A stretch of DNA of 64,000 nt. Source: Candidatus Sumerlaeaceae bacterium. Lineage in GTDB: Bacteria; Sumerlaeota; Sumerlaeia; Sumerlaeales; Sumerlaeaceae. Positions within the stretch are counted from its first letter, which is position 1; every line of letters starts with the position of its first letter. The translations under genes were made by a program, and so were the position numbers. A model generated the notes under the pieces. The model saw nothing but the letters and a program-made list of their open reading frames with translations, did no database searches and was not told the origin of the DNA. Shown here one piece after another: positions 3,359 through 46,148 of the stretch. The DNA lies in assembly GCA_019695055.1 (NCBI GenBank), contig JAIBAT010000063.1, positions 6,220 to 70,219 on the forward strand, read 5' to 3'.

Positions 3359-3937
3359 TTACATGTCGCTAACCAACCGCTCCAGTGGCGGCTCATCCTC
3401 TTCGATGGCCTCGAACCGGCCGACGTCGAGATTCTCGAAGAAATTGTCATTGAGGTCGTCGTTCGCTGTCGAGACCTCGCCGATGATGCAGTAATCGCTG
3501 ACCGGCCAAAACTCGTGGTAAACGCCAGGGTAGAGCGTGATGCGGTCACCCTGAATCATATAGATCACGGAATTCGAGGGAAAGAACTGCTCCTCACCAT
3601 TTATAAGGACACGCACCGGCTTCCCGGCGCGGTTGGCGCGCCAGTCCTCCGTCCGGTCGGCCACACGAACTGCGAAAGTCCCGACCCGGCAGATGATATC
3701 TTCCTGCTTCTTCTTATGGCAATGGAGGAGCGTCACCTGGTTCTTCTTCGCAAACATCAGCTTCTCGCAATACTCGGGCAGATCGGTCAGGTTTACCAGC
3801 ACCAGCCCATTTTGCGGGAACCGTCCCAGCCCGAAACCGGTTACGTCCCAGCGCGGCTTGGGGGGCAGGTGCCAATGATGGCGCTCAAAGGCCAACCGGG
3901 CATCCGCAATGGCCGCATTGATTTCTGATCGTTTCAT
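3359..3937 (-). CDS. D-lyxose ketol-isomerase-like cupin (YdaE family)
   Basis: MKRSEINAAIA...WDVTGFG...HCHKKKQEDIICR...GEVSTANDDLNDNFFENLDVGRFEAIEEDEPP matches the recalled YdaE/D-lyxose isomerase blocks; start set at the MKRSEI ATG. Confidence 0.6.
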   Translation of the reverse strand: MKRSEINAAIADARLAFERHHWHLPPKPRWDVTGFGLGRFPQNGLVLVNLTDLPEYCEKLMFAKKNQVTLLHCHKKKQEDIICRVGTFAVRVADRTEDWRANRAGKPVRVLINGEEQFFPSNSVIYMIQGDRITLYPGVYHEFWPVSDYCIIGEVSTANDDLNDNFFENLDVGRFEAIEEDEPPLERLVSDM

Positions 3938-4135
3938 CCCACGAAAACCTCGTCCCAACCTGCCAAATTTGTCCTATTTAGGCACTATCCGGGCATTTTT
4001 CAAATCCATCCCTTGACGCATAGGCAATCCCAATGTGCATTGGAAAGGGTTTGGTGGTTGCTTTTCCCCCCTTTTTGGGGGGCGGGTAGGGAGAAAATGG
4101 CAAGGCAGGGCATCTCCCGGGCAGGGCTGCGTGCG

Positions 4136-4164
4136 TTGACGCAACCCCCGGCCCGGCATATACA
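4136..4164 (+). promoter_or_regulatory. candidate sigma70 promoter (TTGACG-17 bp-TATACA) upstream of the pseudopilin operon
   Basis: Hexamers read directly; 17-bp spacer; about 17 nt before the first operon start. Confidence 0.25.
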
Positions 4165-4180
4165 TCACTGGTAGACTATT

Positions 4181-4798
4181 GTGGTTTCGGGCACTTACAT
4201 AACAAAGGCGGGGGGCAGGCGTGCCTTCTCGCTCATCGAGTTGCTGGTGGTCATCGCCATCATGCTGATACTCACGGTTTTGGCCGTGGGCGCCTACGCC
4301 AATTTCAACAAGGCCCGCCGAATCCGCAGCTCCGCCGAATCCATCAATAGCATCTTCACCACCGCCCGGGCCTTCGCCATTTCCAAGAACCAATGGTATC
4401 GCGTGGTCTTCCAGTTCAAGAACCCAGACACCGGCGCCGAGGAATTCGCCTACTGGATCGACGAGATCGTCCGAAACACCAGTGCCAGCCCCTCCCCGCC
4501 AATTATCCAGCTTCCCAACGGGGTCATCACCCCCAAGGTCACCACTCCCGAATTCATGGATCAAAAGGTGCAGATCGAATCCATCTATGTGGACAACCTG
4601 GCTGACCCGGCAACGACCATAACCGCAAGCGCCGCGAATTACGCCGTCGTGCGGTTCCGGCCTGATGGTTCGTCGGACGCATCATCTGTCCACATCATCA
4701 GCCGTGCCACCGACCCCGCCGTGGATTCCAACTACTATACGATCAAGCTCTACAACCCCTCCGCGAAATCGAAAATCTATGCGGAAACGCGGAGGTAG
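4181..4798 (+). CDS. prepilin-type N-terminal cleavage/methylation domain protein (minor pseudopilin-like)
   Basis: GTG start; leader ...KAGGRRAFSLIELLVVIAIMLIL (class III signal-like, Ala at -1). Confidence 0.65.
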   Translation: MVSGTYITKAGGRRAFSLIELLVVIAIMLILTVLAVGAYANFNKARRIRSSAESINSIFTTARAFAISKNQWYRVVFQFKNPDTGAEEFAYWIDEIVRNTSASPSPPIIQLPNGVITPKVTTPEFMDQKVQIESIYVDNLADPATTITASAANYAVVRFRPDGSSDASSVHIISRATDPAVDSNYYTIKLYNPSAKSKIYAETRR

Positions 4799-6215: not shown

Positions 6216-6665
6216 GTGAAAGCCATCCTGCAGCGCGTGCGCGAAGCCAGCGTGGACGTGGACGGGCAAACCGTTGGCCGCATCGGCCCCGGACTGCTCG
6301 TGCTAGCGGGATTCACCGCCTCGGATGACCGCCGTGCCCTCGAAGCCGTCGCCACCAAAATGGTGAACCTCCGCATTTTCGAGGACAATGACGGCAAGAT
6401 GAACCTCTCGCTGCTCGAAACCGGTGGCGGGCTGCTGGTTGTCAGCCAGTTTACCCTCTACGCCGATTGCCGCAAAGGCCGTCGCCCCAGTTTCATGAAC
6501 GCCGCGCCCCCCGACCAGGCCAAAAGTCTCTACGAGGAATTCGTCGGAATCTGCCGAAGCCTTGGCCCGCAGGTGGAAACCGGAATCTTTGCGGCCATGA
6601 TGGAGGTCCGGCTAAACAACTGGGGCCCTGTCACTATAACGTTGGATTCTGACGAACTCGCTTAG
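6216..6665 (+). CDS. dtd: D-aminoacyl-tRNA deacylase
   Basis: MKAILQRV..GPGLLVLAGF...SQFTLYADCRKGRRPSF matches the Dtd signature; 149 aa. Confidence 0.85.
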   Translation: MKAILQRVREASVDVDGQTVGRIGPGLLVLAGFTASDDRRALEAVATKMVNLRIFEDNDGKMNLSLLETGGGLLVVSQFTLYADCRKGRRPSFMNAAPPDQAKSLYEEFVGICRSLGPQVETGIFAAMMEVRLNNWGPVTITLDSDELA

Positions 6666-6672
6666 TTAATCT

Positions 6673-7758
6673 TCAGGCCAACTCTTCCTCAAACAGCGAA
6701 AGCTGCCCGTCCCCCGACGCCCGCCGAAACGCCTCCACAGACAGCGACGTGTCGCGCTGCACCAACCCGGCCCGCTTGCAAGCCAGCCCGAACAGCTTGT
6801 GGATGTTCTCCGCGTGCACCCCTTCGCCCCGCATACGCGCGCCAAACCGCGGATCGGTCAGCTTGCCGTCACGCATTTCCCGCAACCGGTTCATGACCTT
6901 CTCGCGCGCATCGGGCCGGTGCGTGGCCAGCCATTCCTCGAACATCTGTCCCACGCTGTAGGGGAGCCGCAAAATCGTGTAGTTGGCGAACTTCGCCCCC
7001 GCCCGCGCCGCCTCGCTGATGACCGACGGTATCTCGTGCTCGGTGAGCCCCGGAATGATGGGCGCCATCATGACCCCCACCGGGATCCCCGCCGCCGCCA
7101 GCTCCTCGATCGCCGCCAACCGCCCCGTTGGCGCCGAGGCCCGCGGCTCCAGGGTCCGCGCCAGCTCCGGATCCAGCGACGTGACCGACACGCACACCAC
7201 CGCCGCGTTATGCCTCGCCAGCTCGCCCAGCACATCAATGTCTCTCGTCACCAGCCGGCTTTTCGTGATGATCGCCACAGGGTTACGAAACTCCGCCATC
7301 ACTTCCAGGCACTGCCGCGTGATCCGCAGCCGTTTCTCCGCCGGTTGATACGGATCCGTCACACCGCTCATGGCGATCACCCGCGGCTTCCACCGCGGCG
7401 ACGACAACTCCTTCCGCAGCAGCCGCGGAGCATCCTCTTTCACCATGATGCGCGACTCGAAATCCAACCCCGACGAGAACCCAAGGTACTCGTGCGTCGG
7501 CCGGGCGTAGCAGTACACGCACCCATGCTCGCACCCGCGATAGGGGTTCAGCCCTGTATCAAACGGCACGTCCGGGCTGTCGTTGTGCGACAGCACACCC
7601 TTGGTCCGATCCTGGAAGAACTCCGTCGTGGGTGCCGGATCCGGGCACAGTCCCTCGACGGCCTCGCGCTCCACGTGGCGCTTGGCGAAACGGTTTCGCG
7701 GGTTGCCTGCGGTTCCCCGCCCGCGCAACGGGGAATGAATGGTGGTTATCGCGCTCAT
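6673..7758 (-). CDS. radical SAM protein, SplB-like DNA repair photolyase family (COG1533-like)
   Basis: CEHGCVYCYARPTHEYLGF cluster motif typical of the SplB/PA0069 family; 361 aa. Confidence 0.6.
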   Translation of the reverse strand: MSAITTIHSPLRGRGTAGNPRNRFAKRHVEREAVEGLCPDPAPTTEFFQDRTKGVLSHNDSPDVPFDTGLNPYRGCEHGCVYCYARPTHEYLGFSSGLDFESRIMVKEDAPRLLRKELSSPRWKPRVIAMSGVTDPYQPAEKRLRITRQCLEVMAEFRNPVAIITKSRLVTRDIDVLGELARHNAAVVCVSVTSLDPELARTLEPRASAPTGRLAAIEELAAAGIPVGVMMAPIIPGLTEHEIPSVISEAARAGAKFANYTILRLPYSVGQMFEEWLATHRPDAREKVMNRLREMRDGKLTDPRFGARMRGEGVHAENIHKLFGLACKRAGLVQRDTSLSVEAFRRASGDGQLSLFEEELA

Positions 7759-10759: not shown

Positions 10760-11066
10760 GTACTGAGTTTCGAAACCATCTTCATGCAAAGGTCCCTTTT
10801 GCCTTTGTCACAATTGCCAATTGGCCTTCTCGGATTAAGAAGCCATCTGGGAAGCCATGATTCCTGCAAACGGTGCCAGGTCGGTTCGCGGTTCTCAGCG
10901 TAAGGGTCGACAGTCCCAATTCTGGGACGCTCAAATTCGAGGATGCTTCACCTTTTCCCCAATTAACTTTTGGCGCCCACCTGCCAACACCACCCATCGC
11001 CCCGTTCCCTCGGTTTCCTTCGAGCCTTCGTGTCAGGACTTTGCCTTTCCCCCTCTGTGCCAATCT

Positions 11067-11123
11067 GCGAAATCTGTGGAGACGCTTCCTTAACTCAAAA
11101 TTGAGAATTGAGAATTTGAGATT
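11067..11123. repeat. dispersed repeat copy A (GAAATCTGTGGA...CAAAATTGAGAATTGAGAATTTGAGATT)
   Basis: About 75-80% identical over about 55 bp to 16129-16190; contains TTGAGAA heptad tandem. Confidence 0.4.
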
Positions 11124-11655
11124 ATGGGTCTACAAGGGGTTGCAAGGGGTCGTGGGGGAATAGGCAAACCCGTTCCCCCGTGCTACACCCATCCTCAGTT
11201 AAATTGCCCGATCTCCATTCCCGTCACCATCGCACGAATTACAAAGGAATGGGGATACAGCCCCCGCACCGGGCATTGTTCTTTGACATGACCAACAGGC
11301 CAGAAGGCCAACCCGATTCTCATTCGCCCAGCCGGCGTGTTTCGTGGGCAAGAAAGTGCACTTTCACGCACATTTGGACCGATTTTAGTACGCACAATTT
11401 GGCAATTCAAATCGGTTTAAGTGCGCTCTTAAATCATAAGAAACATTGATAATAAAGGACTTGTGCAAAAAGTGCATACCCCCCCTCCCCCTCCCCCCCG
11501 TTCGTAGTTAAGGGTTTCAGGCGGTCTCTCCCAAATCGCGTCGCACTTTCAACAGTTGCAACCTTACTCCGCCGTTCTTCCTCGGCACCCCAGCGCTCCC
11601 CGCCCCGAGTTTCCCGTTGCACACTCCAGCCCCGGTAGATTGGACTCAGCACTCC

Positions 11656-13623
11656 ATGGACGCCTTCCCCATCCGTCCTATCCGCAGGGCGATTGGCTGC
11701 ATGCTTCTTGCAATCGCCGGCCTGATGGCGCCATGCAACGGCGCTCCCGTTCCAATCCTCGCCAAAGTCGTCAACCTGGGAGACGGGGAACTCAAACTCA
11801 GTCCAGCTTGGCCGGAGTTTACCTCCACCACCCTTTCAAATGAACGCGAGCTGCTGGTGGAACTCCTCAAGCAAAGCGGAGTTTCCATTTCCGTTGATGC
11901 CCCCACCATTCACCTGGAAATCGGCAAAGTCGATGTAGCTGTCCGGCAATCTCGTTTCACTCCCCAGCTCCAGGCCGACGCCTACCGGCTCACGGTCACC
12001 ACCAACGCCGTCACCATTCGCGGCGGTTCCCCCGCCGGGGTCTTCTATGGCATCCAGACCCTCGTCCGTTCCCTTTCCAGCAATGGCACTCTCCCGGTCA
12101 TGGAGATCACCGACTGGCCCGATCTTCCCACGCGAATGATCATGGTGGACCCGGCCCGCCAGAACGAGAACTTCGATTACTACCGCCGCGTCATCGAGTG
12201 GGCCAGCCGCTACGGCATCAACGCGATTCTCGTTCACCTGACAGACGACCAGACCGCCTGCCTTCACCAGCCTGACTACCCCGAGCTGATGCATCCCCAC
12301 GCCTGGCGCCCCGATGAAATCCGGGCCTTGGTTGCCTTCGCCAGGAAACGCCATGTCGAGCTGATTCCCGAGATAGAGTCCTTTGGCCATTCCCGCATGT
12401 TTACCCGGCGCGACGACTTCCGCGAGATTCTCCACCAGAACCGCCTCACCACTGGCTCAGGCACCTGGTACGGCACCAGCATCCCTGGCTTCACCAACGT
12501 GCTTTGTCCCGCCAGCGAAAAGGCCTACGACTACCTCGACCGGATGTATGGTGCCGCCGCGGAAACTTTCACCAATCCGGTGCTCCACCTTGGATGTGAC
12601 GAGGTTGACATGACAAGTTGCGCCCGGTGTGAGGCAAAGTTCCCCGGCATTTCCCCCTCGGATTGGTTTCGCCAGCACCTGCTCCGGTGCCGCGAAATCG
12701 CCATCAAGCACGGGCGCATCGCAGCGTTCTGGGGCGACATGCTTATTGCCCATCCTGAGATACTTGATGGCCTTCCCACCTCGGGCACAATAATCTATGA
12801 CTGGCATTACCATCCCGAGGTCACCTCCGAGTCCGCCGCCATGTTTCGCCGCCGCGGCTTCGAGGTCGTCGCCTGCCCCGCCCTCGTCTGCTCGCCTCAC
12901 ATCGTGATCCCCGACGCTCACAACTACGAGAACATCCGCCGCTCCGCCGCGATCGCGCGCGAACTCGATCTCGCCGGTCTCAACACCACCATCTGGATTC
13001 CACCGCGCTATATGTCGGATGTACTCTGGCCGGGAATCGCCTACGCCGGCGCCCAGGCATGGGGTGGCTCCAACCTCGACGAATCCCGCTTCGCCCAATC
13101 CGTCGCGCGCGACCTCTTCGGCCTCGAAGGCACCAATTCCTTCGACACCGCATGGATTGCCTTGGCGGAAGCTGCGCCACACATGGATGTGTTCAACCTG
13201 TGCGCCTGGAGCGATGCCGCGACCTTGGCCAAGGCGCAACAGGCTGCCCCTGAAAAGCGCGCAGAGATTGCCCAGAAGCAGGAGAAACTCCGATTAGCCA
13301 GAAAAGAACTGATAAACTGCGCACCTCGCGTCACCCGTAACGACGATGCTTGGCACGCTGTGGTCCAATCTGCGGACATCCTCGACTACCTCTACGCCCG
13401 CTTCGATGCTGCCAACGATCCCACCCTCACCGCCACCGCCAAACTCCGCCGCCTCGAAATGCGCTGCGTAGAAATCATCGGCTGGATCGAAGCCGACTGG
13501 CGCCGCAACCGCTACGATGGGGATCCCAACATGGACGGGCTGTATCTCCCAGACCAACACCTTCTCCACCGATTCAAGAAGATGCAGGCCTATCACCGCA
13601 GCATTGGAGTGGCCTCTCCATGA
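11656..13623 (+). CDS. glycoside hydrolase family 20-like (beta-N-acetylhexosaminidase-like), secreted
   Basis: Signal-like MDAFPIRPIRRAIGCMLLAIAGLMA; HVELIPEIESFGHS and HLGCDEV resemble GH20 catalytic blocks (IPEID.PGH / HxGGDE). Confidence 0.55.
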   Translation: MDAFPIRPIRRAIGCMLLAIAGLMAPCNGAPVPILAKVVNLGDGELKLSPAWPEFTSTTLSNERELLVELLKQSGVSISVDAPTIHLEIGKVDVAVRQSRFTPQLQADAYRLTVTTNAVTIRGGSPAGVFYGIQTLVRSLSSNGTLPVMEITDWPDLPTRMIMVDPARQNENFDYYRRVIEWASRYGINAILVHLTDDQTACLHQPDYPELMHPHAWRPDEIRALVAFARKRHVELIPEIESFGHSRMFTRRDDFREILHQNRLTTGSGTWYGTSIPGFTNVLCPASEKAYDYLDRMYGAAAETFTNPVLHLGCDEVDMTSCARCEAKFPGISPSDWFRQHLLRCREIAIKHGRIAAFWGDMLIAHPEILDGLPTSGTIIYDWHYHPEVTSESAAMFRRRGFEVVACPALVCSPHIVIPDAHNYENIRRSAAIARELDLAGLNTTIWIPPRYMSDVLWPGIAYAGAQAWGGSNLDESRFAQSVARDLFGLEGTNSFDTAWIALAEAAPHMDVFNLCAWSDAATLAKAQQAAPEKRAEIAQKQEKLRLARKELINCAPRVTRNDDAWHAVVQSADILDYLYARFDAANDPTLTATAKLRRLEMRCVEIIGWIEADWRRNRYDGDPNMDGLYLPDQHLLHRFKKMQAYHRSIGVASP

Positions 13624-14600
13624 CAGAGAAGCCGGGCATCGAGCCTGAACCGGATTCAGCTGCGCCTAGGCAAGCGCTGGCACCGGAGGACGACCTTGCA
13701 GGTGCGTTAACTCCGGACGCGCCCAACCGCAAATACAAACAGTTTACAACCATGGTGGGAGCCTTTGTTGGAGCCTTCATGGTGCTTCTTGCATTGGTAG
13801 TGGACGTATCGTGGCCCATCCCCGGCCGGGATTTGTTCGACTCTCCGAGTTTGCACCACCTTTACTTTATCGTGAATTTGCCGGGTTACTGGCTGACCGA
13901 TCAGCTTCTCGGTGTGCGATATGGCCTCAGTGATTTGCGGATTTGGTTCACCGTACATCTCATCGGCATATTTATCCAATGGTTGCTTGTCGGGCTGGTT
14001 GTTGGCTTGGCTGTTGATTGCGCAGGAGACACGATCCGCTGGATTCGTACTCATTGGGACTACCGGCTGGTTTTTCGTTCAGTGCTATTGGCGGTAGTTG
14101 CTTTAATTATCATTGGCGCCCTGAACCCCCTGGATTTGGGGTCGAGACGAGGTACGGTAGCAAGAGTTCGGTCAGATATGCGGTCCTTCGCCACTGGATT
14201 GGAATCTTATTATGCGGACAACAATCGCTTTCCCCCTTTAGCACCTCTGACTTTTGGGGCGTCTTCACTCGCAGCAGGGTTCATCGAGAGAATGGGGGGC
14301 GCCAACTTGTCTGCCCCACATGCCGGCTCAACGCAGCTTGGCGGACTAACCACTCCAATCAGTTACCTGAATTCTTTGTTCTCGGATCCCTTTGTATTCG
14401 AGAACATTCCCTTTGCCTATTACGCCGACAGCGGGGGCTGGATAGTTTTTAGTCCGGGTCCCGACGGGTTTTACGATATAGTGCCCAATAGGGACTACGT
14501 CTCCAGTAATTCGCAGTCCCTTGATACTCTGCTCAGTAAGTCCTTCGATCCCACGAATGGCACTGTAAGCGGTGGAGATATCTGGCGCGTCAGGCAATAG
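13620..14600 (+). CDS. membrane-anchored pseudopilin-core paralog (polytopic N-terminus + GspG-like C-terminal domain)
   Basis: ATGA overlap with the upstream stop; C-terminus has RVRSDMRSFATGLESYYADNNRFPP...TTPISYLNSL...GGWIVFSPGPDG...FDPTNGTVSGGDIWR, paralogous to the 42657 and 43563 genes; N-terminus has several hydrophobic helices and no prepilin leader. Confidence 0.55.
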   Translation: MTEKPGIEPEPDSAAPRQALAPEDDLAGALTPDAPNRKYKQFTTMVGAFVGAFMVLLALVVDVSWPIPGRDLFDSPSLHHLYFIVNLPGYWLTDQLLGVRYGLSDLRIWFTVHLIGIFIQWLLVGLVVGLAVDCAGDTIRWIRTHWDYRLVFRSVLLAVVALIIIGALNPLDLGSRRGTVARVRSDMRSFATGLESYYADNNRFPPLAPLTFGASSLAAGFIERMGGANLSAPHAGSTQLGGLTTPISYLNSLFSDPFVFENIPFAYYADSGGWIVFSPGPDGFYDIVPNRDYVSSNSQSLDTLLSKSFDPTNGTVSGGDIWRVRQ

Positions 14601-23277: not shown

Positions 23278-23354
<77 letters not shown>

Positions 23355-23411
23355 GCAAGGGCCTTTACTCCTACTTCATGCTGCCGCTTTTATTTCGGCA
23401 GCGGGGAAAAC

Positions 23412-23488
23412 TGGTGGGTAGAGTAGGGCTCGAACCTACGACCCCCAGCTTGTAAGGCTGGTGCTCTAACCAACTGAGCTATCCACCC
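23412..23488 (-). tRNA. tRNA-Val (TAC)
   Basis: GGGTGGATAGCTCAGTTGGTTAGAGC...; anticodon loop CTTACAA; CCA encoded. Confidence 0.85.
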
Positions 23489-42656: not shown

Positions 42657-43355
42657 TCAGTTTTGACCATTCGTTGCTGTTGTTATGACCGGATTGTAAG
42701 GAATGCTACCCTCCGAGCTTCTTGCAGTACGAATAATATTACCTACACTAACAGTTCCGTTAGTCGGGTCGTAACGTGTATAAACACGGTTAACGCCAAG
42801 TAACGACGGCACGGCAGTGTCGAAATTTCCCGCCTGGTCGGGCCCGAAGGAATAGAACAGCCATCCACCCGTCATTTCAATTCGGGCACCATAATTGGTA
42901 ACCAAGGATGGACTGGCGACATTGGCTTCCAGGAATTCATAATAATTGAAATACGTGTAACGATATCCCGTTCCTTCGCCATAGACGTTTGGGGCCAGCG
43001 GCGGAGGGTTGGTCTTTGGCAAAAAGACATCCTGACCCAATGATGTGATGTAAGCAATGGGTGTGGATATCCATGATGGAACCCTGGAATGGAAAGGGAA
43101 ATTCCCTGCGGTATTGCTTGGTGTTAATCCGGCGTTGGGGTAGTCGGCGGCCGGAGGATATTTGTTCCCATCCACACGATACGATTCCAAAGCCGTTGCA
43201 ATGGACCGCATATCTGCCTTGGTACGACTGACCTTGGCGCGCGTTTGCGCCTCAAGGAAGTTGGGAACCGCTATCGCTGCGAGAATCGCAATGATTGCCA
43301 CAACGATGAGCAGCTCGATAAGGGTAAAACCACGAAAACTAATAGGTTTTCTCAT
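42657..43355 (-). CDS. GspG-like prepilin-type pseudopilin
   Basis: MRKPISFRG|FTLIELLIVVAIIAILAAIAVPNFLEAQTRAKVSRTKADMRSIATALESYRVDGNKYPP; RBS AAAGGA. Confidence 0.7.
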   Translation of the reverse strand: MRKPISFRGFTLIELLIVVAIIAILAAIAVPNFLEAQTRAKVSRTKADMRSIATALESYRVDGNKYPPAADYPNAGLTPSNTAGNFPFHSRVPSWISTPIAYITSLGQDVFLPKTNPPPLAPNVYGEGTGYRYTYFNYYEFLEANVASPSLVTNYGARIEMTGGWLFYSFGPDQAGNFDTAVPSLLGVNRVYTRYDPTNGTVSVGNIIRTARSSEGSIPYNPVITTATNGQN

Positions 43356-43562
43356 TTGAGCACCCATCCTTTATGATTATGGTATAAAGAGCACCGCCAC
43401 AGGGACACAAAAGCGCCCCAAGGCAACCGATGTTTCTATGTGGCGTTTCGCGCCCCAGTCAAAGCAATTCGCATTTGGCGCGATCCCAAAGGACGCCAAT
43501 GAAAACGGGTGGGTCCCAAGGTAACCCACCCGATCTCTAAGACAAACCCAGTTTGATTTGGA

Positions 43563-44234
43563 TTACGGCGTTGTGTAGAAGTATGCCACCGTTCCCAATT
43601 TGTCGCCACTGCCTTGCGTCCGGAAAACATTGCCGAGGCTGACGGTGCCATTAGTTGGATCATAGTCGCGGTAAACACGCTGGCCCACTACGGCAACTGC
43701 GCCTGGAGTGTTGAACTCATCGCGATCTGGCCCTATGGAGTACATCAACCAGGCCCCTGCCAGCTTCGTGGCTTCGGTGAAGTTGTTCACGTTCGGGGGG
43801 GCGAGAGACGGCGTGACAAAGTAGTACTTAAAGTTGAAGTAGATCTGCCGACGCTCCACGAGGTTTAACGGAGGCGTCAGGGCGCCAACTGTCGTAGAGC
43901 GGAATGGATCCTCGGGCAGGCTGGTCATGTAGGAGATCGGGGTGGTGATATAGTTCGGAACGCGGGAGTGAAACGGTGGGGTCACCAGAGTACCCCACGT
44001 CAGGGTGCCTCCAAATGTCGTGTCCCAAGCTGGCGGATAGGCATTGTTGTCTACTGCATAGGCCTCCAGCCCCGTGGCCAGCGACCTCAAATCTGCCTTG
44101 TTACGACTAACCTTTGAGCGCACTTGCGCCTCAAGGAAGTTGGGAACCGCTATCGCCGCGAGAATCGCAATGATTGCCACGACGATGAGCAATTCGATAA
44201 GGGTAAAACCACGACAACTAATAGGTTTTCTCAT
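43563..44234 (-). CDS. GspG-like prepilin-type pseudopilin (tandem paralog)
   Basis: MRKPISCRG|FTLIELLIVVAIIAILAAIAVPNFLEAQVRSKVSRNKADLRSLATGLEAYAVDNNAYPP; same RBS context. Confidence 0.7.
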   Translation of the reverse strand: MRKPISCRGFTLIELLIVVAIIAILAAIAVPNFLEAQVRSKVSRNKADLRSLATGLEAYAVDNNAYPPAWDTTFGGTLTWGTLVTPPFHSRVPNYITTPISYMTSLPEDPFRSTTVGALTPPLNLVERRQIYFNFKYYFVTPSLAPPNVNNFTEATKLAGAWLMYSIGPDRDEFNTPGAVAVVGQRVYRDYDPTNGTVSLGNVFRTQGSGDKLGTVAYFYTTP

Positions 44235-44516
44235 TTGAGTACCCGTCCTTTACTGAGAGTGATATGTATGGCGTAACCATGTTCCACAAAGGGGCCCATG
44301 GCAAATTGGAGAATTAGGGTTCGCGGTGGCCGGAGTCAAAGCAATTCGCTTTTGTGCTTCGTTCCGCCTTCCGGGGGCAATCGCCTCTTACCTGTCCACG
44401 GCCCTGCAATTGATAAACCGCCCTCAAAACAGACTGCTGAGAATCCTCCATCCTTGGAACCCCGCTCCCGTTCCCGCAGTCTAAGTTCCTAATTCGAACA
44501 AGGAGGCACATCCCCC

Positions 44517-44945
44517 ATGCCCACTGTTTCCGAAATTCTTCGCCGCAAGGGCGACGACGTTTTCACTGTTTCCCCCACAGCCACAGCCATGGACGCCATT
44601 CGCGCCATGAACAATCATCGCCTCGGTGCCGTTGTCGTGGTGGATGACGGCCAGGTTGTCGGGATGTTCACCGAGCGCGATGTGCTGGTGCGGCTCCTCG
44701 GCGCCAGCCTCGACCCCGAGTCCACCCGCGTGGAGGATGTGATGACCACCCCGGTGGCCTATTGCACTACGAACACGCCGCTGACCGAGTGCAAATCCAT
44801 CTTCACGGAACGTCGCATACGCCACCTGCCCGTGATGGAGGACGACCGTCTGGCCGGAATGGTCACAAGCGGCGACATCCTTGCGTTCGAAGCCACCGAC
44901 CACGAACAGACCATCCGCTACCTCGAGTCCTACATCCAGAGCTAA
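44517..44945 (+). CDS. CBS-pair domain protein
   Basis: Two CBS-like repeats (...LGAVVVVDDGQVVGMFTERDVL / ...RHLPVMEDDRLAGMVTSGDIL); RBS AAGGAGG. Confidence 0.7.
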   Translation: MPTVSEILRRKGDDVFTVSPTATAMDAIRAMNNHRLGAVVVVDDGQVVGMFTERDVLVRLLGASLDPESTRVEDVMTTPVAYCTTNTPLTECKSIFTERRIRHLPVMEDDRLAGMVTSGDILAFEATDHEQTIRYLESYIQS

Positions 44946-44960
44946 GGCGGAAGGCGGCGT

Positions 44961-46148
44961 CTACCCCATCGCCGCGGCGAGGGGTTTCCAGCCGCTCAGG
45001 TCGTTAAGGCGGTTCATCATAAGGTTGTACTGATCGCCGTAAAGCCTGCGGATCGTATCCTCATTGATGCGGCGCGGCTTCTGGTGCCACAGCCGGTACA
45101 CGCAGTTGCCCATGGAGATGTTGCGGTCCGTTTCCAGGCTCTGCTCCAGGCGGCCAAAGTCGCTTTGTCGCAGGTAATTCTTTTCCGCGTAGGTGATGTT
45201 GAGGATTTCGTAAATTGGGAACACACCCGAGCCATCCACGGCCTTTAGCAATTGCTGGCTGATGATGCCGCGCAGAGTCGTGGCAAGCCGCGCGTGGAAT
45301 TCCCCCTCGCCGCCGCTGGCCGCGCCCGCGCCCAGCACGATGTGCTGCAATCGGCTAATAGCCGGGATGGCGCCGATGGCGTGAAGCGTGCAGAACGACA
45401 TGATACCCGTTTCCGCCGCATTCAGGGCAATTGTGGCTGTCTCCTGGTCGCGCACTTCGCCGATGAGCAGCACGTCCGGGTTCTTGCGCACGCTCGCGCG
45501 AAGCGCGTGGGCGAAGTCCGGCGTGTCGCGACCGATTTCGCGCCGTGTCACCAGGCACTTGTCGCTGTGGATCGTGTATTCCACAGGGTTCTCAATCGTC
45601 GTGATGGATCCCAACCGGTTGTGATTGATGTAATCCAGCATCGCGGCGATGGTCGTCGTCTTGCCGGAGCTGGTTTCTCCCGCCACGATGATGAGTCCGC
45701 TCTCCGTCGCGATGAGTTTCTTCAGCATGTCGGCATCCACGCCGATCTTATCGATCGGGATCAGGTTGGCGCGCAGGTACCGCATGACGAGGTAGTAGCG
45801 GCGGCCATTTGCGAAACCCACGTTGATGCGGCCCGTCGCATCTTCAAAGTCCATGGAGAAATCGCTGTCGGCATGCTTGCGGAATTCGTCGAGCTGGTCC
45901 TGCGCCAGCGCAAATTCCATGATCTCCTCGATGTCGCGCCGCGTCACCACGGGGTGATCCTTGCTCTCGATGGGGAGCAAATCCCCCTGGATGCGCACCC
46001 GGGGGCGTTCCCCCTCCATCAGGTGGATATCCGAGCCGTTCTTGTCCTTTACGAGCGCCACGATGCGCTCGAGCAGAAGCATTCCGCCCGAAGTCGGGCT
46101 GCCTGAGCCCTGGTGTTCGTGGGTCATCCCCTCTGGGGCATCCTGCAT
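44961..46148 (-). CDS. pilT: type IV pilus retraction ATPase PilT/PilU family
   Basis: GETSSGKTTT Walker A; ITTIENPVEY...DVLLIGEVRDQETA...AETGIMSFCTLHA. Confidence 0.75.
   Translation of the reverse strand: MQDAPEGMTHEHQGSGSPTSGGMLLLERIVALVKDKNGSDIHLMEGERPRVRIQGDLLPIESKDHPVVTRRDIEEIMEFALAQDQLDEFRKHADSDFSMDFEDATGRINVGFANGRRYYLVMRYLRANLIPIDKIGVDADMLKKLIATESGLIIVAGETSSGKTTTIAAMLDYINHNRLGSITTIENPVEYTIHSDKCLVTRREIGRDTPDFAHALRASVRKNPDVLLIGEVRDQETATIALNAAETGIMSFCTLHAIGAIPAISRLQHIVLGAGAASGGEGEFHARLATTLRGIISQQLLKAVDGSGVFPIYEILNITYAEKNYLRQSDFGRLEQSLETDRNISMGNCVYRLWHQKPRRINEDTIRRLYGDQYNLMMNRLNDLSGWKPLAAAMG

Follow-up and report, generated by a model that had tools for sequence, protein, structure and literature searches.

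What does a GspG-type head do at the end of a polytopic membrane protein that has no prepilin leader? Pilins and pseudopilins, with the cleavable class III leader as their defining feature, are regarded as subunits of filaments, and the question is raised by a 326-aa ORF at positions 13620–14600 (+) of a 64,000-nucleotide stretch of DNA (the window) from a Candidatus Sumerlaeaceae MAG. The ORF, closed by a stop codon at 14598–14600, is identical in start and length to the NCBI hypothetical protein K1X53_05305, the name used below; an exact-sequence contig look-up returned no record of it. The features of the locus are collected in Table 1.

Table 1. Coordinates of K1X53_05305, its upstream neighbour and its paralogues within the window.
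Feature	Position	Strand	Basis
GH20 beta-N-acetylhexosaminidase gene	11617..13623	+	Pfam Glyco_hydro_20 1.3e-23, Glyco_hydro_20b 3.8e-15; NCBI name
Coupling signals: GGAG + ATGA overlap	13606..13623	+	GGAG 13606–13609, 10 nt ahead of ATG 13620
N-terminal tail, aa 1–43, predicted cytoplasmic	13620..13748	+	hydropathy, charge count; codon score +0.07, best of six
TM1, aa ~44–63	13749..13808	+	Kyte-Doolittle (KD) 19-residue window maximum 2.48; AF2 helix
Loop, aa ~64–107, predicted periplasmic	13809..13940	+	KD <1 throughout
TM2, aa ~108–133	13941..14018	+	KD maximum 2.54; AF2 helix 106–145
Short loop, aa ~134–149, predicted cytoplasmic	14019..14066	+	charge count: 3 Arg, 2 His
TM3, aa ~150–170, decayed pilin alpha1-N	14067..14129	+	KD maximum 2.73; MAFFT; AF2
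GspG-type pseudopilin head, aa 171–326, predicted periplasmic	14130..14597	+	alpha1-C, variable alpha/beta loop, beta-sheet
Second canonical prepilin-type pseudopilin paralogue	42657..43367	-	BLASTP E=5e-13
Canonical GspG-like pseudopilin, leader ...RG|FTLIE, closer paralogue of the head	43563..44234	-	BLASTP E=2e-17

The C-terminal part of K1X53_05305 has the GspG-type alpha/beta head fold. BLASTP alignments to both pseudopilin paralogues of the window span residues 177–325, bearing out the paralogy proposed by the initial annotation, and every sequence block listed there is present; a head profile recognises three head genes in the window. PDB profile matches of the head were to GspG exclusively (2kep, 9.7e-5; 3g20, 2e-4), while a Foldseek search against the PDB returned nothing significant (best E 0.4). 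As in GspG/PulG/EpsG (TIGR01710, PF08334), a hydrophobic helix in register with alpha1-N directly precedes an alpha1-C helix with the motif R-x-x-V-x-R-x-x-x-D-x-R-x-x-A-x-x-L-E-x-Y-x-x-D-x-x-x-Y-P, and the D-P-[FW] and S-x-G-P-D-G loop motifs align to GspG structures. The head differs from GspG in its longer alpha/beta loop, in extra sequence inserted between the SPGPDG and DPTNG loops, and in a C-terminus fixed as RV[KR]Q. GspG has a calcium site in its C-terminal loop; in the head, the conserved SPGPDG and DPTNGTVSGGD loops belong to an Asp/Gly-rich SPGPDG...DPTNGTxSxGD pattern, and the protein closes with RVRQ (C-terminus FDPTNGTVSGGDIWRVRQ-stop).

Neither Pfam nor NCBIfam recognises K1X53_05305: it has no match to T2SSG (PF08334, threshold 21 bits) or TIGR01710 (threshold 88.85 bits), and N_methyl (PF07963) and TIGR02532 gave no match at E≤1. 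The window paralogues do reach PF08334 but score just 56–59 bits on TIGR01710. The paralogue at 43563–44234(-) matches Pfam N_methyl at 1.7e-8 and T2SSG at 5.5e-5, with 59 bits on TIGR01710 against a cut-off of 88.85, and that at 42657–43367(-) matches N_methyl at 9.6e-8 and T2SSG at 1.1e-4. A further difference from GspG is that K1X53_05305 lies outside any secretion or pilus operon; the pseudopilin and T2SSE ATPase genes of the window are ∼28–31 kb away, and no secretion or pilus machinery adjoins it.

The leader itself has been lost in a recognisable way. When aligned by column with 23 canonical prepilins, D147, Y148 and F152 occupy the pilin G(-1), F1 and E5 positions, R149 aligns to T2, and L150, V151 and F152 of TM3 fall at L3, I4 and E5. 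N169-P170 falls at P22-N23. TM3 is in register with alpha1-N (MAFFT), and its proline is one position off P22. AF2 models a helix at 148–168, a break and then the alpha1-C helix at 175–201, and a hydrophobic alpha1-N continuous with an amphipathic alpha1-C is thus present. No class III signal peptide (basic leader, Gly(-1), F/M-x-x-x-E5) is found; 146 residues with two TM helices precede D147. These replacements (Gly(-1)→Asp, Phe1→Tyr, Glu5→Phe) make cleavage by prepilin peptidase implausible. The initial annotation was therefore right that the G|F cleavage motif is absent and that the pilin hydrophobic helix is kept, TM3 aligning to it column for column. It had also called the head grafted; the extra N-terminus is real, but the last TM segment is itself a decayed alpha1-N rather than a foreign anchor, and the history accordingly looks like N-terminal extension of a prepilin, not transfer of a head.

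Three segments of K1X53_05305 exceed a KD value of 1.6. The sequence NRKYK immediately precedes TM1, and Arg, Lys and His are concentrated in the N-terminal tail and the 134–149 loop. Hydropathy and the positive-inside rule together suggest an N-in/C-out topology with the head in the periplasm; the TM helices being odd in number, the head comes to lie outside. An extension had been proposed of ∼230 residues with three or four additional helices. It is real, yet shorter: ∼149 residues precede the pilin-like helix and ∼175 the head, and two additional helices are clear (aa ∼44–63 and ∼108–133), while the third stretch (aa ∼78–95, within the 64–107 loop) is a weakly hydrophobic helix (KD maximum <1; AF2 helix 76–98, low confidence). 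From the lost leader together with three TM helices that fit N-in/C-out we infer, as the initial annotation did, a permanently anchored, unprocessed and non-polymerising head; it would face the periplasm, assuming a diderm organism, rather than the cell surface envisaged earlier.

The N-terminal module (aa 1–175) is an orphan among the proteins searched. Neither a word-indexed search of 5.8 billion proteins nor phmmer --max, run on every family member and locus ORF, turned up a homologue, and a survey of relatives for the same module came back empty. Among ∼15 billion proteins K1X53_05305 forms a cluster of its own, and the searches yielded no orthologue sharing its architecture by which conservation over the full length could be judged. 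SpoIIGA-like matches of the N-terminus (E 0.18 and 0.03) fell far below cut-offs and were taken as hydrophobic noise.

The head, in contrast to its N-terminal module, has many relatives. The family, leaderless RVKQ-type GspG-like heads, was defined here by a profile of leaderless members built from five seeds that include K1X53_05305. At E≤1e-3 this profile matched 5555 cluster representatives, of which 331 were left at a cut-off of E≤1e-30. K1X53_05305 was the third best of 1.84 billion representatives (E 1.4e-66, 239.8 bits), a rank that is partly circular for a seed; its 39–43% identity to the relatives P0002–P0005 is independent of the profile. The best 150 members by profile comprise 7 canonical prepilins, 46 single-TM proteins, 31 polytopic proteins, 44 with a large N-terminal extension and at least one TM, 8 with an extension and no TM, and 14 N-terminally too truncated to classify. 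The class III motif is absent from 129 of the 136 classifiable members, although some single-TM proteins counted as leaderless may be cleaved at degenerate sites. An RVKQ-like C-terminal motif occurs in 123 of the 150. The typical C-terminus reads ...YDPTNGTxSxGDIxRV[KR]Q, and K1X53_05305 ends directly after such a motif, with nearly all family-conserved residues retained and one conservative Tyr-to-Phe change.

In these relatives the head follows a wide range of anchors and modules: single or multiple TM segments, DUF3352, DUF4190, zinc ribbons, ECF sigma factors, zf-HC2/FecR anti-sigma factors and BlaR1-type proteins. Among 79 long members we counted DUF3352 (13), DUF4190 (8), ECF sigma (4), Zn ribbon (4), Peptidase_M56 (1) and FecR (1); Pfam T2SSG recognises only 22 of them. 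At one Sumerlaeota locus (L007), an ECF sigma gene overlaps a zf-HC2+FecR anti-sigma gene whose product ends in the head. P0004 carries it on an ECF sigma fusion behind an Ala/Pro linker, and the BlaR1-type (Peptidase_M56) protein P0028 has two heads. In this family the head serves as an autonomous extracytoplasmic domain, a view supported by the tandem double heads of some members.

Genome matches of the family are mostly to Sumerlaeota, where prepilin-type paralogues are abundant (dozens per genome) and canonical RVKQ-type prepilins are found alongside leaderless ones in MAGs. Over a hundred leaderless architectures recur in independent assemblies. No common neighbour emerged for the leaderless relatives P0004, P0005 and P0023. 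The literature searched on leaderless pseudopilin heads, pilin-like sensor domains and Sumerlaeota pilins held no description of this family. The earlier view that no such system had been described stands to that extent, but K1X53_05305 is no isolated case: it belongs to a large family that apparently has yet to be described.

Among known systems, signalling proteins bear comparison with several of these relatives. In zf-HC2/FecR anti-sigma factors, membrane-fused ECF sigma factors and BlaR1/MecR1 transducers, the C-terminal position beyond the TM segment usually carries a sensor domain, and it is there that the heads of L007, P0004 and P0028 lie; these heads may receive the signal. K1X53_05305 differs in having no recognisable cytoplasmic signalling module: Pfam and NCBIfam gave no match to zf-HC2, FecR or Sigma70_r2/r4, and no sigma gene adjoins it. 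A pilin fold as the sensor domain of these classes is not described in the literature searched. DUF1559 / H-X9-DG prepilins of Planctomycetes (PVC-type) resemble the Sumerlaeota case in their phylum-wide expansion of GspG-like N-terminal-methylation proteins. These families keep the class III leader, and their Pfam or NCBIfam models did not match K1X53_05305 at E≤1. In Geobacter sulfurreducens, PilA-N (61 aa) and PilA-C (104 aa) together make up the heterodimeric major pilin (PMC11046646), and PilA-C likewise is a pilin globular part made without its own prepilin leader. PilA-C, however, pairs with the adjacent PilA-N and is built into the filament, whereas K1X53_05305 keeps its own alpha1, locked by extra TM helices. 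No PilA-N-like headless pilin gene lies beside it, the neighbours being the GH20 gene upstream and a convergent ATP-cone/PRK kinase gene at the 3' side. Two further candidate precedents were set aside: CpaL of Caulobacter keeps its prepilin site, and Bd0109 of Bdellovibrio (PMC3818213) is a loose analogy only.

We consider it probable (roughly 0.6) that K1X53_05305 is a three-helix protein tethered in the inner membrane, whose periplasmic GspG-type head acts as a binding module. Its ancestor would have been an ordinary prepilin, in which an extension of ∼149 aa with two more TM helices replaced the class III leader and the residues for processing and assembly were lost. As for polytopic proteins in general, insertion of the product would rely on Sec/YidC; prepilin peptidase would neither cut nor N-methylate it, and it could not be extracted from the membrane into a pseudopilus. 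Without cleavage or extraction, the folded head would remain on permanent display on the periplasmic side of the inner membrane, as a module for binding or recognition. As there is no cytoplasmic output domain, the protein would tether a partner from the periplasm to the membrane or act as its receptor. Co-translation with the GH20 in this genome makes a chitooligosaccharide, or the GH20 itself, a candidate ligand, which the loci compared below do not bear out.

A broader reading, which we offer as speculation and think rather doubtful, is that GspG-type heads form a widespread unrecognised class of periplasmic sensor or binding domains. The head might then have been freed repeatedly from filament assembly through loss of the class III leader, and Sumerlaeota heads might signal to ECF sigma/anti-sigma and BlaR1-type transducers. 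The periplasmic signal could conceivably consist of glycan fragments, or reflect the condition of the secretion machinery or the pseudopilus, and within this circuitry anchor-only versions such as K1X53_05305 might function as receptors, as tethers or as decoys.

A narrower role tied to the neighbouring gene is unlikely. Here, the head would bind chitooligosaccharides or the co-translated GH20 hexosaminidase, and so keep the substrate or the enzyme close to sugar uptake at the inner membrane. This moves to the periplasm the glycan-binding or presentation role that the initial annotation had suggested from the GH20 neighbour. The start codon of K1X53_05305 (ATG 13620–13622) does overlap the GH20 stop codon (TGA 13621–13623), as the initial annotation had read from the DNA, and this 4-nt ATGA with its Shine-Dalgarno sequence indicates a two-gene operon; Rfam, promoter and terminator scans around it found nothing above background. 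The GH20 ORF is listed from TTG 11617, the likelier starts being ATG 11656 or the NCBI start at 11701 (640 aa), and its N-terminus, judged by eye from the translation, resembles a signal peptide. Chitin degradation by means of GH20 hexosaminidases is predicted for Sumerlaeota (PMC8092238), and the tandem heads of some relatives resemble carbohydrate-binding-module arrangements. Against this, no head gene lies downstream of the three closest GH20 orthologues examined (P0175, P0177 and P0180; 60, 57 and 52% identity), which precede other genes, the one at L089 being coupled by 4 nt to an unrelated 304-aa ORF with no Pfam match. When the GH20 was searched by tblastn against 84 family loci, L077, a locus that holds a canonical prepilin, was the only one hit, with weak matches (21% identity); no GH20 was found near a leaderless member in the 84 fetched loci. 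A conserved linkage to GH20, proposed for testing alongside the initial annotation, was therefore rejected. The G+C content of K1X53_05305 is also unlike that of the GH20 (53%, vs 61% in its neighbours), and the gene could be a newcomer that lies in this operon by chance.

Somewhat less likely again is a role at the filament itself, in which TM3 and the head dock at the assembly platform, beneath the final pseudopilin. Not being extractable, the protein would end or anchor the filament, or it would titrate assembly factors, by analogy with the terminator subunits of other pilus systems. The register of TM3 with alpha1-N, including a helix-breaking Pro one position off, would suit this role, as would the residues common to canonical and leaderless relatives that are kept in the head. 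However, Glu5, which is needed for subunit docking in type IV filaments, is Phe here, and about 28 kb separate the gene from the pseudopilin and ATPase genes of the window. Nor can a filament-core role be general, since many members have no alpha1-N-like helix, e.g. P0004, with its linker, and L007, whose head follows a soluble domain. The coexistence of canonical and leaderless RVKQ-type proteins in Sumerlaeota MAGs does favour it, and pilin-like-fold non-pilins have been proposed as pilus modulators (Bd0109, PMC3818213).

It is improbable that K1X53_05305 is an evolutionary relic, i.e. a functionless, lineage-specific extension or fusion of a redundant prepilin paralogue that came to lie behind the GH20 by chance. 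Its singleton status, the N-terminal module shared with nothing else searched, the lower G+C, a codon score in the head below that of neighbouring genes and the abundance of prepilin paralogues in Sumerlaeota would all fit such an origin. The ORF, on the other hand, is intact with a well-placed start, the odd number of TM helices puts the head outside, conserved residues are nearly all kept in a protein that ranks so high on the family profile (240 bits), and other leaderless architectures exceed a hundred in independent assemblies.

Least probable is a wrong gene model, with the real start at an internal GTG or TTG near residues 150–156 (in-frame at V155 and L156), a single-anchor product of ∼175 aa like the short single-TM forms among the best relatives (46/150), and 13620–14060 non-coding or a separate small membrane-protein gene: the annotated frame has the best codon score of six over the entire N-terminal part (13620–14144), with stronger support there than in the head, it contains no stop from 13350 to 14598, Shine-Dalgarno and ATGA coupling mark 13620, and a V155 start would leave no positively charged n-region ahead of the anchor. 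The best-scoring frame switches from the GH20 to K1X53_05305 at about 13575–13620; codon statistics thus support the start at ATG 13620, and an internal start near residue 155 was rejected.

That the GspG head survives without a leader, under apparent conservation, in K1X53_05305 and many relatives is a break from the textbook picture of pilins, as these heads appear to be fixed in the membrane, to come as tandem duplicates, or to be joined to sigma, anti-sigma and BlaR1-type modules. It also exposes an annotation gap, K1X53_05305 having been missed wholly by Pfam and NCBIfam. If the head does bind or sense, it would represent a new domain class for bacterial envelope signalling and would help to explain why prepilin-like genes have expanded in Sumerlaeota and phyla like it. 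A connection between polysaccharide use and the biology of secretion or pili could also follow.

The C-terminal part (aa 171-326) of the 326-residue target protein is a GspG-type pseudopilin head. BLASTP aligned aa 177-325 with both canonical pseudopilins of the window (see table), and the paralogy proposed in the initial annotation held, every sequence block that it listed being found. Both paralogues match Pfam N_methyl and T2SSG and carry a ...RG/FTLIE leader, while the target matched no Pfam or NCBIfam model at E<=1 except noise. A profile of five leaderless heads (i.e. without a class III prepilin leader) had GspG alone among its top matches in PDB sequences (2kep, 9.7e-5; 3g20, 2e-4; PulG 1t92, 8.5e-3). 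The AlphaFold2 model of aa 146-326, obtained from a 90-sequence alignment (pLDDT 92.4, pTM 0.83), runs in the order helix, break, helix and small beta-sheet; Foldseek matches were not significant, the best-ranked ones being pilins. The canonical pseudopilin genes adjoin an ATPase gene, with a small, putatively CBS-like ORF in between.

Coordinates of features in the window and in fetched genome loci (L-numbers)
Feature	Location	Strand	Remarks
Target ORF	13620-14600	+	Intact, 326 codons; G+C 53%
Canonical pseudopilin	42657-43367	-	BLASTP with target E 5e-13; G+C 49%
Canonical pseudopilin	43563-44234	-	BLASTP with target E 2e-17; G+C 55%
T2SSE-family (PilT/GspE-like) ATPase	44961-46148	-	Pfam 7.7e-42
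Pseudopilin to ATPase stretch	42657-46148		
Two tRNA genes	23281-23488	-	Sole Rfam gathering-level matches in window
Stretch 5' of GH20 gene	10800-11600		~800 nt; no frame positive for codon usage
GH20 orthologue	L089:5001-7915 (with the overlapping 304-aa ORF)		52% identity
ECF sigma/anti-sigma pair	L007:4058-6480		Candidatus Sumerlaeota MAG JAUWMI010000032.1
DUF3352-head proteins	L008:4138-6450; L011:316-2076; L016:1479-3545		550-770 aa
Leaderless head gene pair	L005:5577-6251 and 6359-6895		Both single TM anchors
Leaderless head gene pair	L001:2492-3388 and 3741-4697		DUF4190 + head; Zn ribbon + DUF4190 + head
Stop-free frame	L030:2502-9953		2483 codons; Sumerlaeota MAG JAFGFK010000142.1

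The target ATG (13620-13622), with GGAG 10 nt 5' of it, overlaps the upstream TGA (13621-13623) as ATGA, so that the proposed overlap with the stop codon of a GH20-like gene can be read directly in the DNA. The upstream gene matches Pfam Glyco_hydro_20b and Glyco_hydro_20 and is named beta-N-acetylhexosaminidase by NCBI; the gene 3' of the target, for an ATP-cone/PRK-family kinase, is convergent, and the operon therefore consists of the GH20 gene and the target. A search for Rfam families and promoters in the stretch 5' of the GH20 gene gave no Rfam family and no convincing promoter. A GH20- or chitooligosaccharide-specific partner for the head is a less likely reading, with the local operon as the one observation in its favor. 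The coupling is real in the source genome but not conserved: the GH20 orthologues at 60, 57 and 52% identity have other neighbors. The last of these (in locus L089) shares a 4-nt overlap with a downstream ORF of 304 aa that resembles neither the target nor any Pfam family; coupling to a gene downstream thus recurs, the identity of that gene does not. A tblastn search with GH20 against all 84 family loci matched only L077, weakly, beside a canonical prepilin, and the compared genomic contexts of three relatives (P0004, P0005 and P0023) had no common theme.

The initial annotation had described about 230 extra N-terminal residues with three or four additional helices; the extension exists, but comprises 149 aa with two TM helices; as a whole it replaces a leader of ∼10 aa and is the new part of the protein. 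Kyte-Doolittle hydropathy exceeded 1.6 in three segments (aa ∼44-63, ∼108-133 and ∼150-170), with a weak hydrophobic stretch (<1) at aa ∼78-95. Basic residues lie before TM1 (NRKYK), others in the 134-149 loop, and together with hydropathy are consistent with an N-in/C-out topology and a periplasmic head. A MAFFT alignment of the target with 23 canonical prepilins places its third helix exactly in register with alpha1-N of the pilins: D147, Y148, R149, L150, V151 and F152 align with G(-1), F1, T2, L3, I4 and E5, respectively, and N169-P170 with P22-N23. The pilin hydrophobic helix is therefore kept and the G/F cleavage motif absent, as had been claimed, and the anchor nearest the head is a decayed pilin helix rather than a foreign one. 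No homologue of aa 1-175 was detectable in a protein database search or among family members and locus ORFs.

Cleavage of class III signal peptides by prepilin peptidase requires Gly(-1), and subunit docking requires Glu5. The target has lost both residues; it would be inserted by Sec/YidC and escape both prepilin peptidase processing and polymerization. A role as a pseudopilus stopper or anchor, acting via the alpha1-N-like helix, is weakened by the loss of Glu5 and by relatives that have no such helix. That the target is a neutral relic is likewise weakened, since its motifs are intact and its profile score is very high. Codon statistics argue against a mis-called start: under a codon-usage log-odds score, for which 22 long window ORFs served as the training set, the annotated frame is the best of six (N-terminal tail +0.07; TM region +0.11), and the best frame passes from that of GH20 to that of the target at ∼13575-13620. 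An identical 326-aa hypothetical protein with the same start is found in a Candidatus Sumerlaeaceae MAG. Target G+C is below the 61% of both neighbors, and that of the canonical pseudopilin genes is also low; GC3 of all three lies below that of neighboring housekeeping genes (G+C ∼61%, GC3 0.74-0.85).

The target belongs to a large family. Leaderless relatives were already present in the first homology search: P0002 (a FecR-type anti-sigma factor fragment), P0003 (polytopic), P0004 (ECF sigma, linker and head) and P0005 (DUF4190 and head), all ending in ...YDPTNGTxSxGDIxRV[KR]Q. An exhaustive search of 1.84 billion cluster representatives with the five-head profile gave 5555 matches at E<=1e-3, 2647 at E<=1e-10 and 331 at E<=1e-30. 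Among the best 150, only 7 had a class III motif in the 60 residues that precede the head; 46 had a short single TM anchor without the motif, 31 were polytopic, 44 carried >100 extra residues plus TM, 8 had no TM and 14 were N-terminally truncated and unclassifiable. The RVKQ-like C-terminal motif was present in 123 of these 150, and six had two tandem heads. Proteins with such tandem heads are P0027 (Zn ribbon, TM and two heads), P0028 and P0033, also P0029, P0030 and P0032. A scan of GTDB species genomes yielded 80 loci, nearly all from Sumerlaeota/BRC1, the remainder including some from UBP4, Omnitrophota and unclassified MAGs. RVKQ-type heads occurred there both with the canonical GFTLIE leader (e.g. 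L010, L012-L014) and leaderless (L005-L008, L011, L015, L016, L066).

Pfam recognized T2SSG in just 22 of 79 long members; other domains were DUF3352 (13), DUF4190 (8), ECF sigma domains (4), Zn ribbon (4), and Peptidase_M56 (BlaR1), FecR and GYF_2 (one each). P0028 is a BlaR1-type M56 protein and carries two heads. The L007 locus pairs an ECF sigma gene (Sigma70_r2/r4_2) with a zf-HC2+FecR anti-sigma gene, the two sharing a 4-nt overlap. The 609-aa anti-sigma protein has a single TM, then a ∼170-aa domain and, at its C-terminus, an RVKQ-type head; P0002 is a fragment of a closely related protein, and P0031 (1177 aa) is a longer relative. The DUF3352 proteins of 550-770 aa that end in a head (those of L008, L011 and L016, also P0051, P0054 and P0066) usually have an N-terminal signal-like segment and keep the distal half of alpha1-N near-verbatim (..AAIAVPNFLEAQ..) without GFTLIE; the topology of this helix is puzzling if the segment is a cleaved signal peptide. 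Leaderless head genes lie in adjacent pairs in L001 and L005. The L030 frame has several hydrophobic stretches and, beginning near residue 1005, a head-like segment; it may represent one giant multidomain protein or consecutive calls fused together.

The target head is homologous to that of GspG and would work like it; the target has no class III leader, scores below curated HMM thresholds and lies outside the operon context, so that classifying it as a pseudopilin would be inappropriate. A leaderless pilin head has a precedent in Geobacter PilA-C, which partners an adjacent headless pilin (PMC11046646), a neighbor that the target lacks. In the literature covered, mostly outside subscription journals, we saw no account of a leaderless GspG head serving as a membrane-anchored or sensor module, an absence that is not proof. 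The family is of more interest than the target gene, itself moderately interesting. In proteins of the sigma, anti-sigma and BlaR1 types the head recurs past the membrane, and it is also duplicated in tandem. This distribution points to a putative autonomous module for periplasmic binding or sensing; the target, having no output domain, would then be a tether or receptor.
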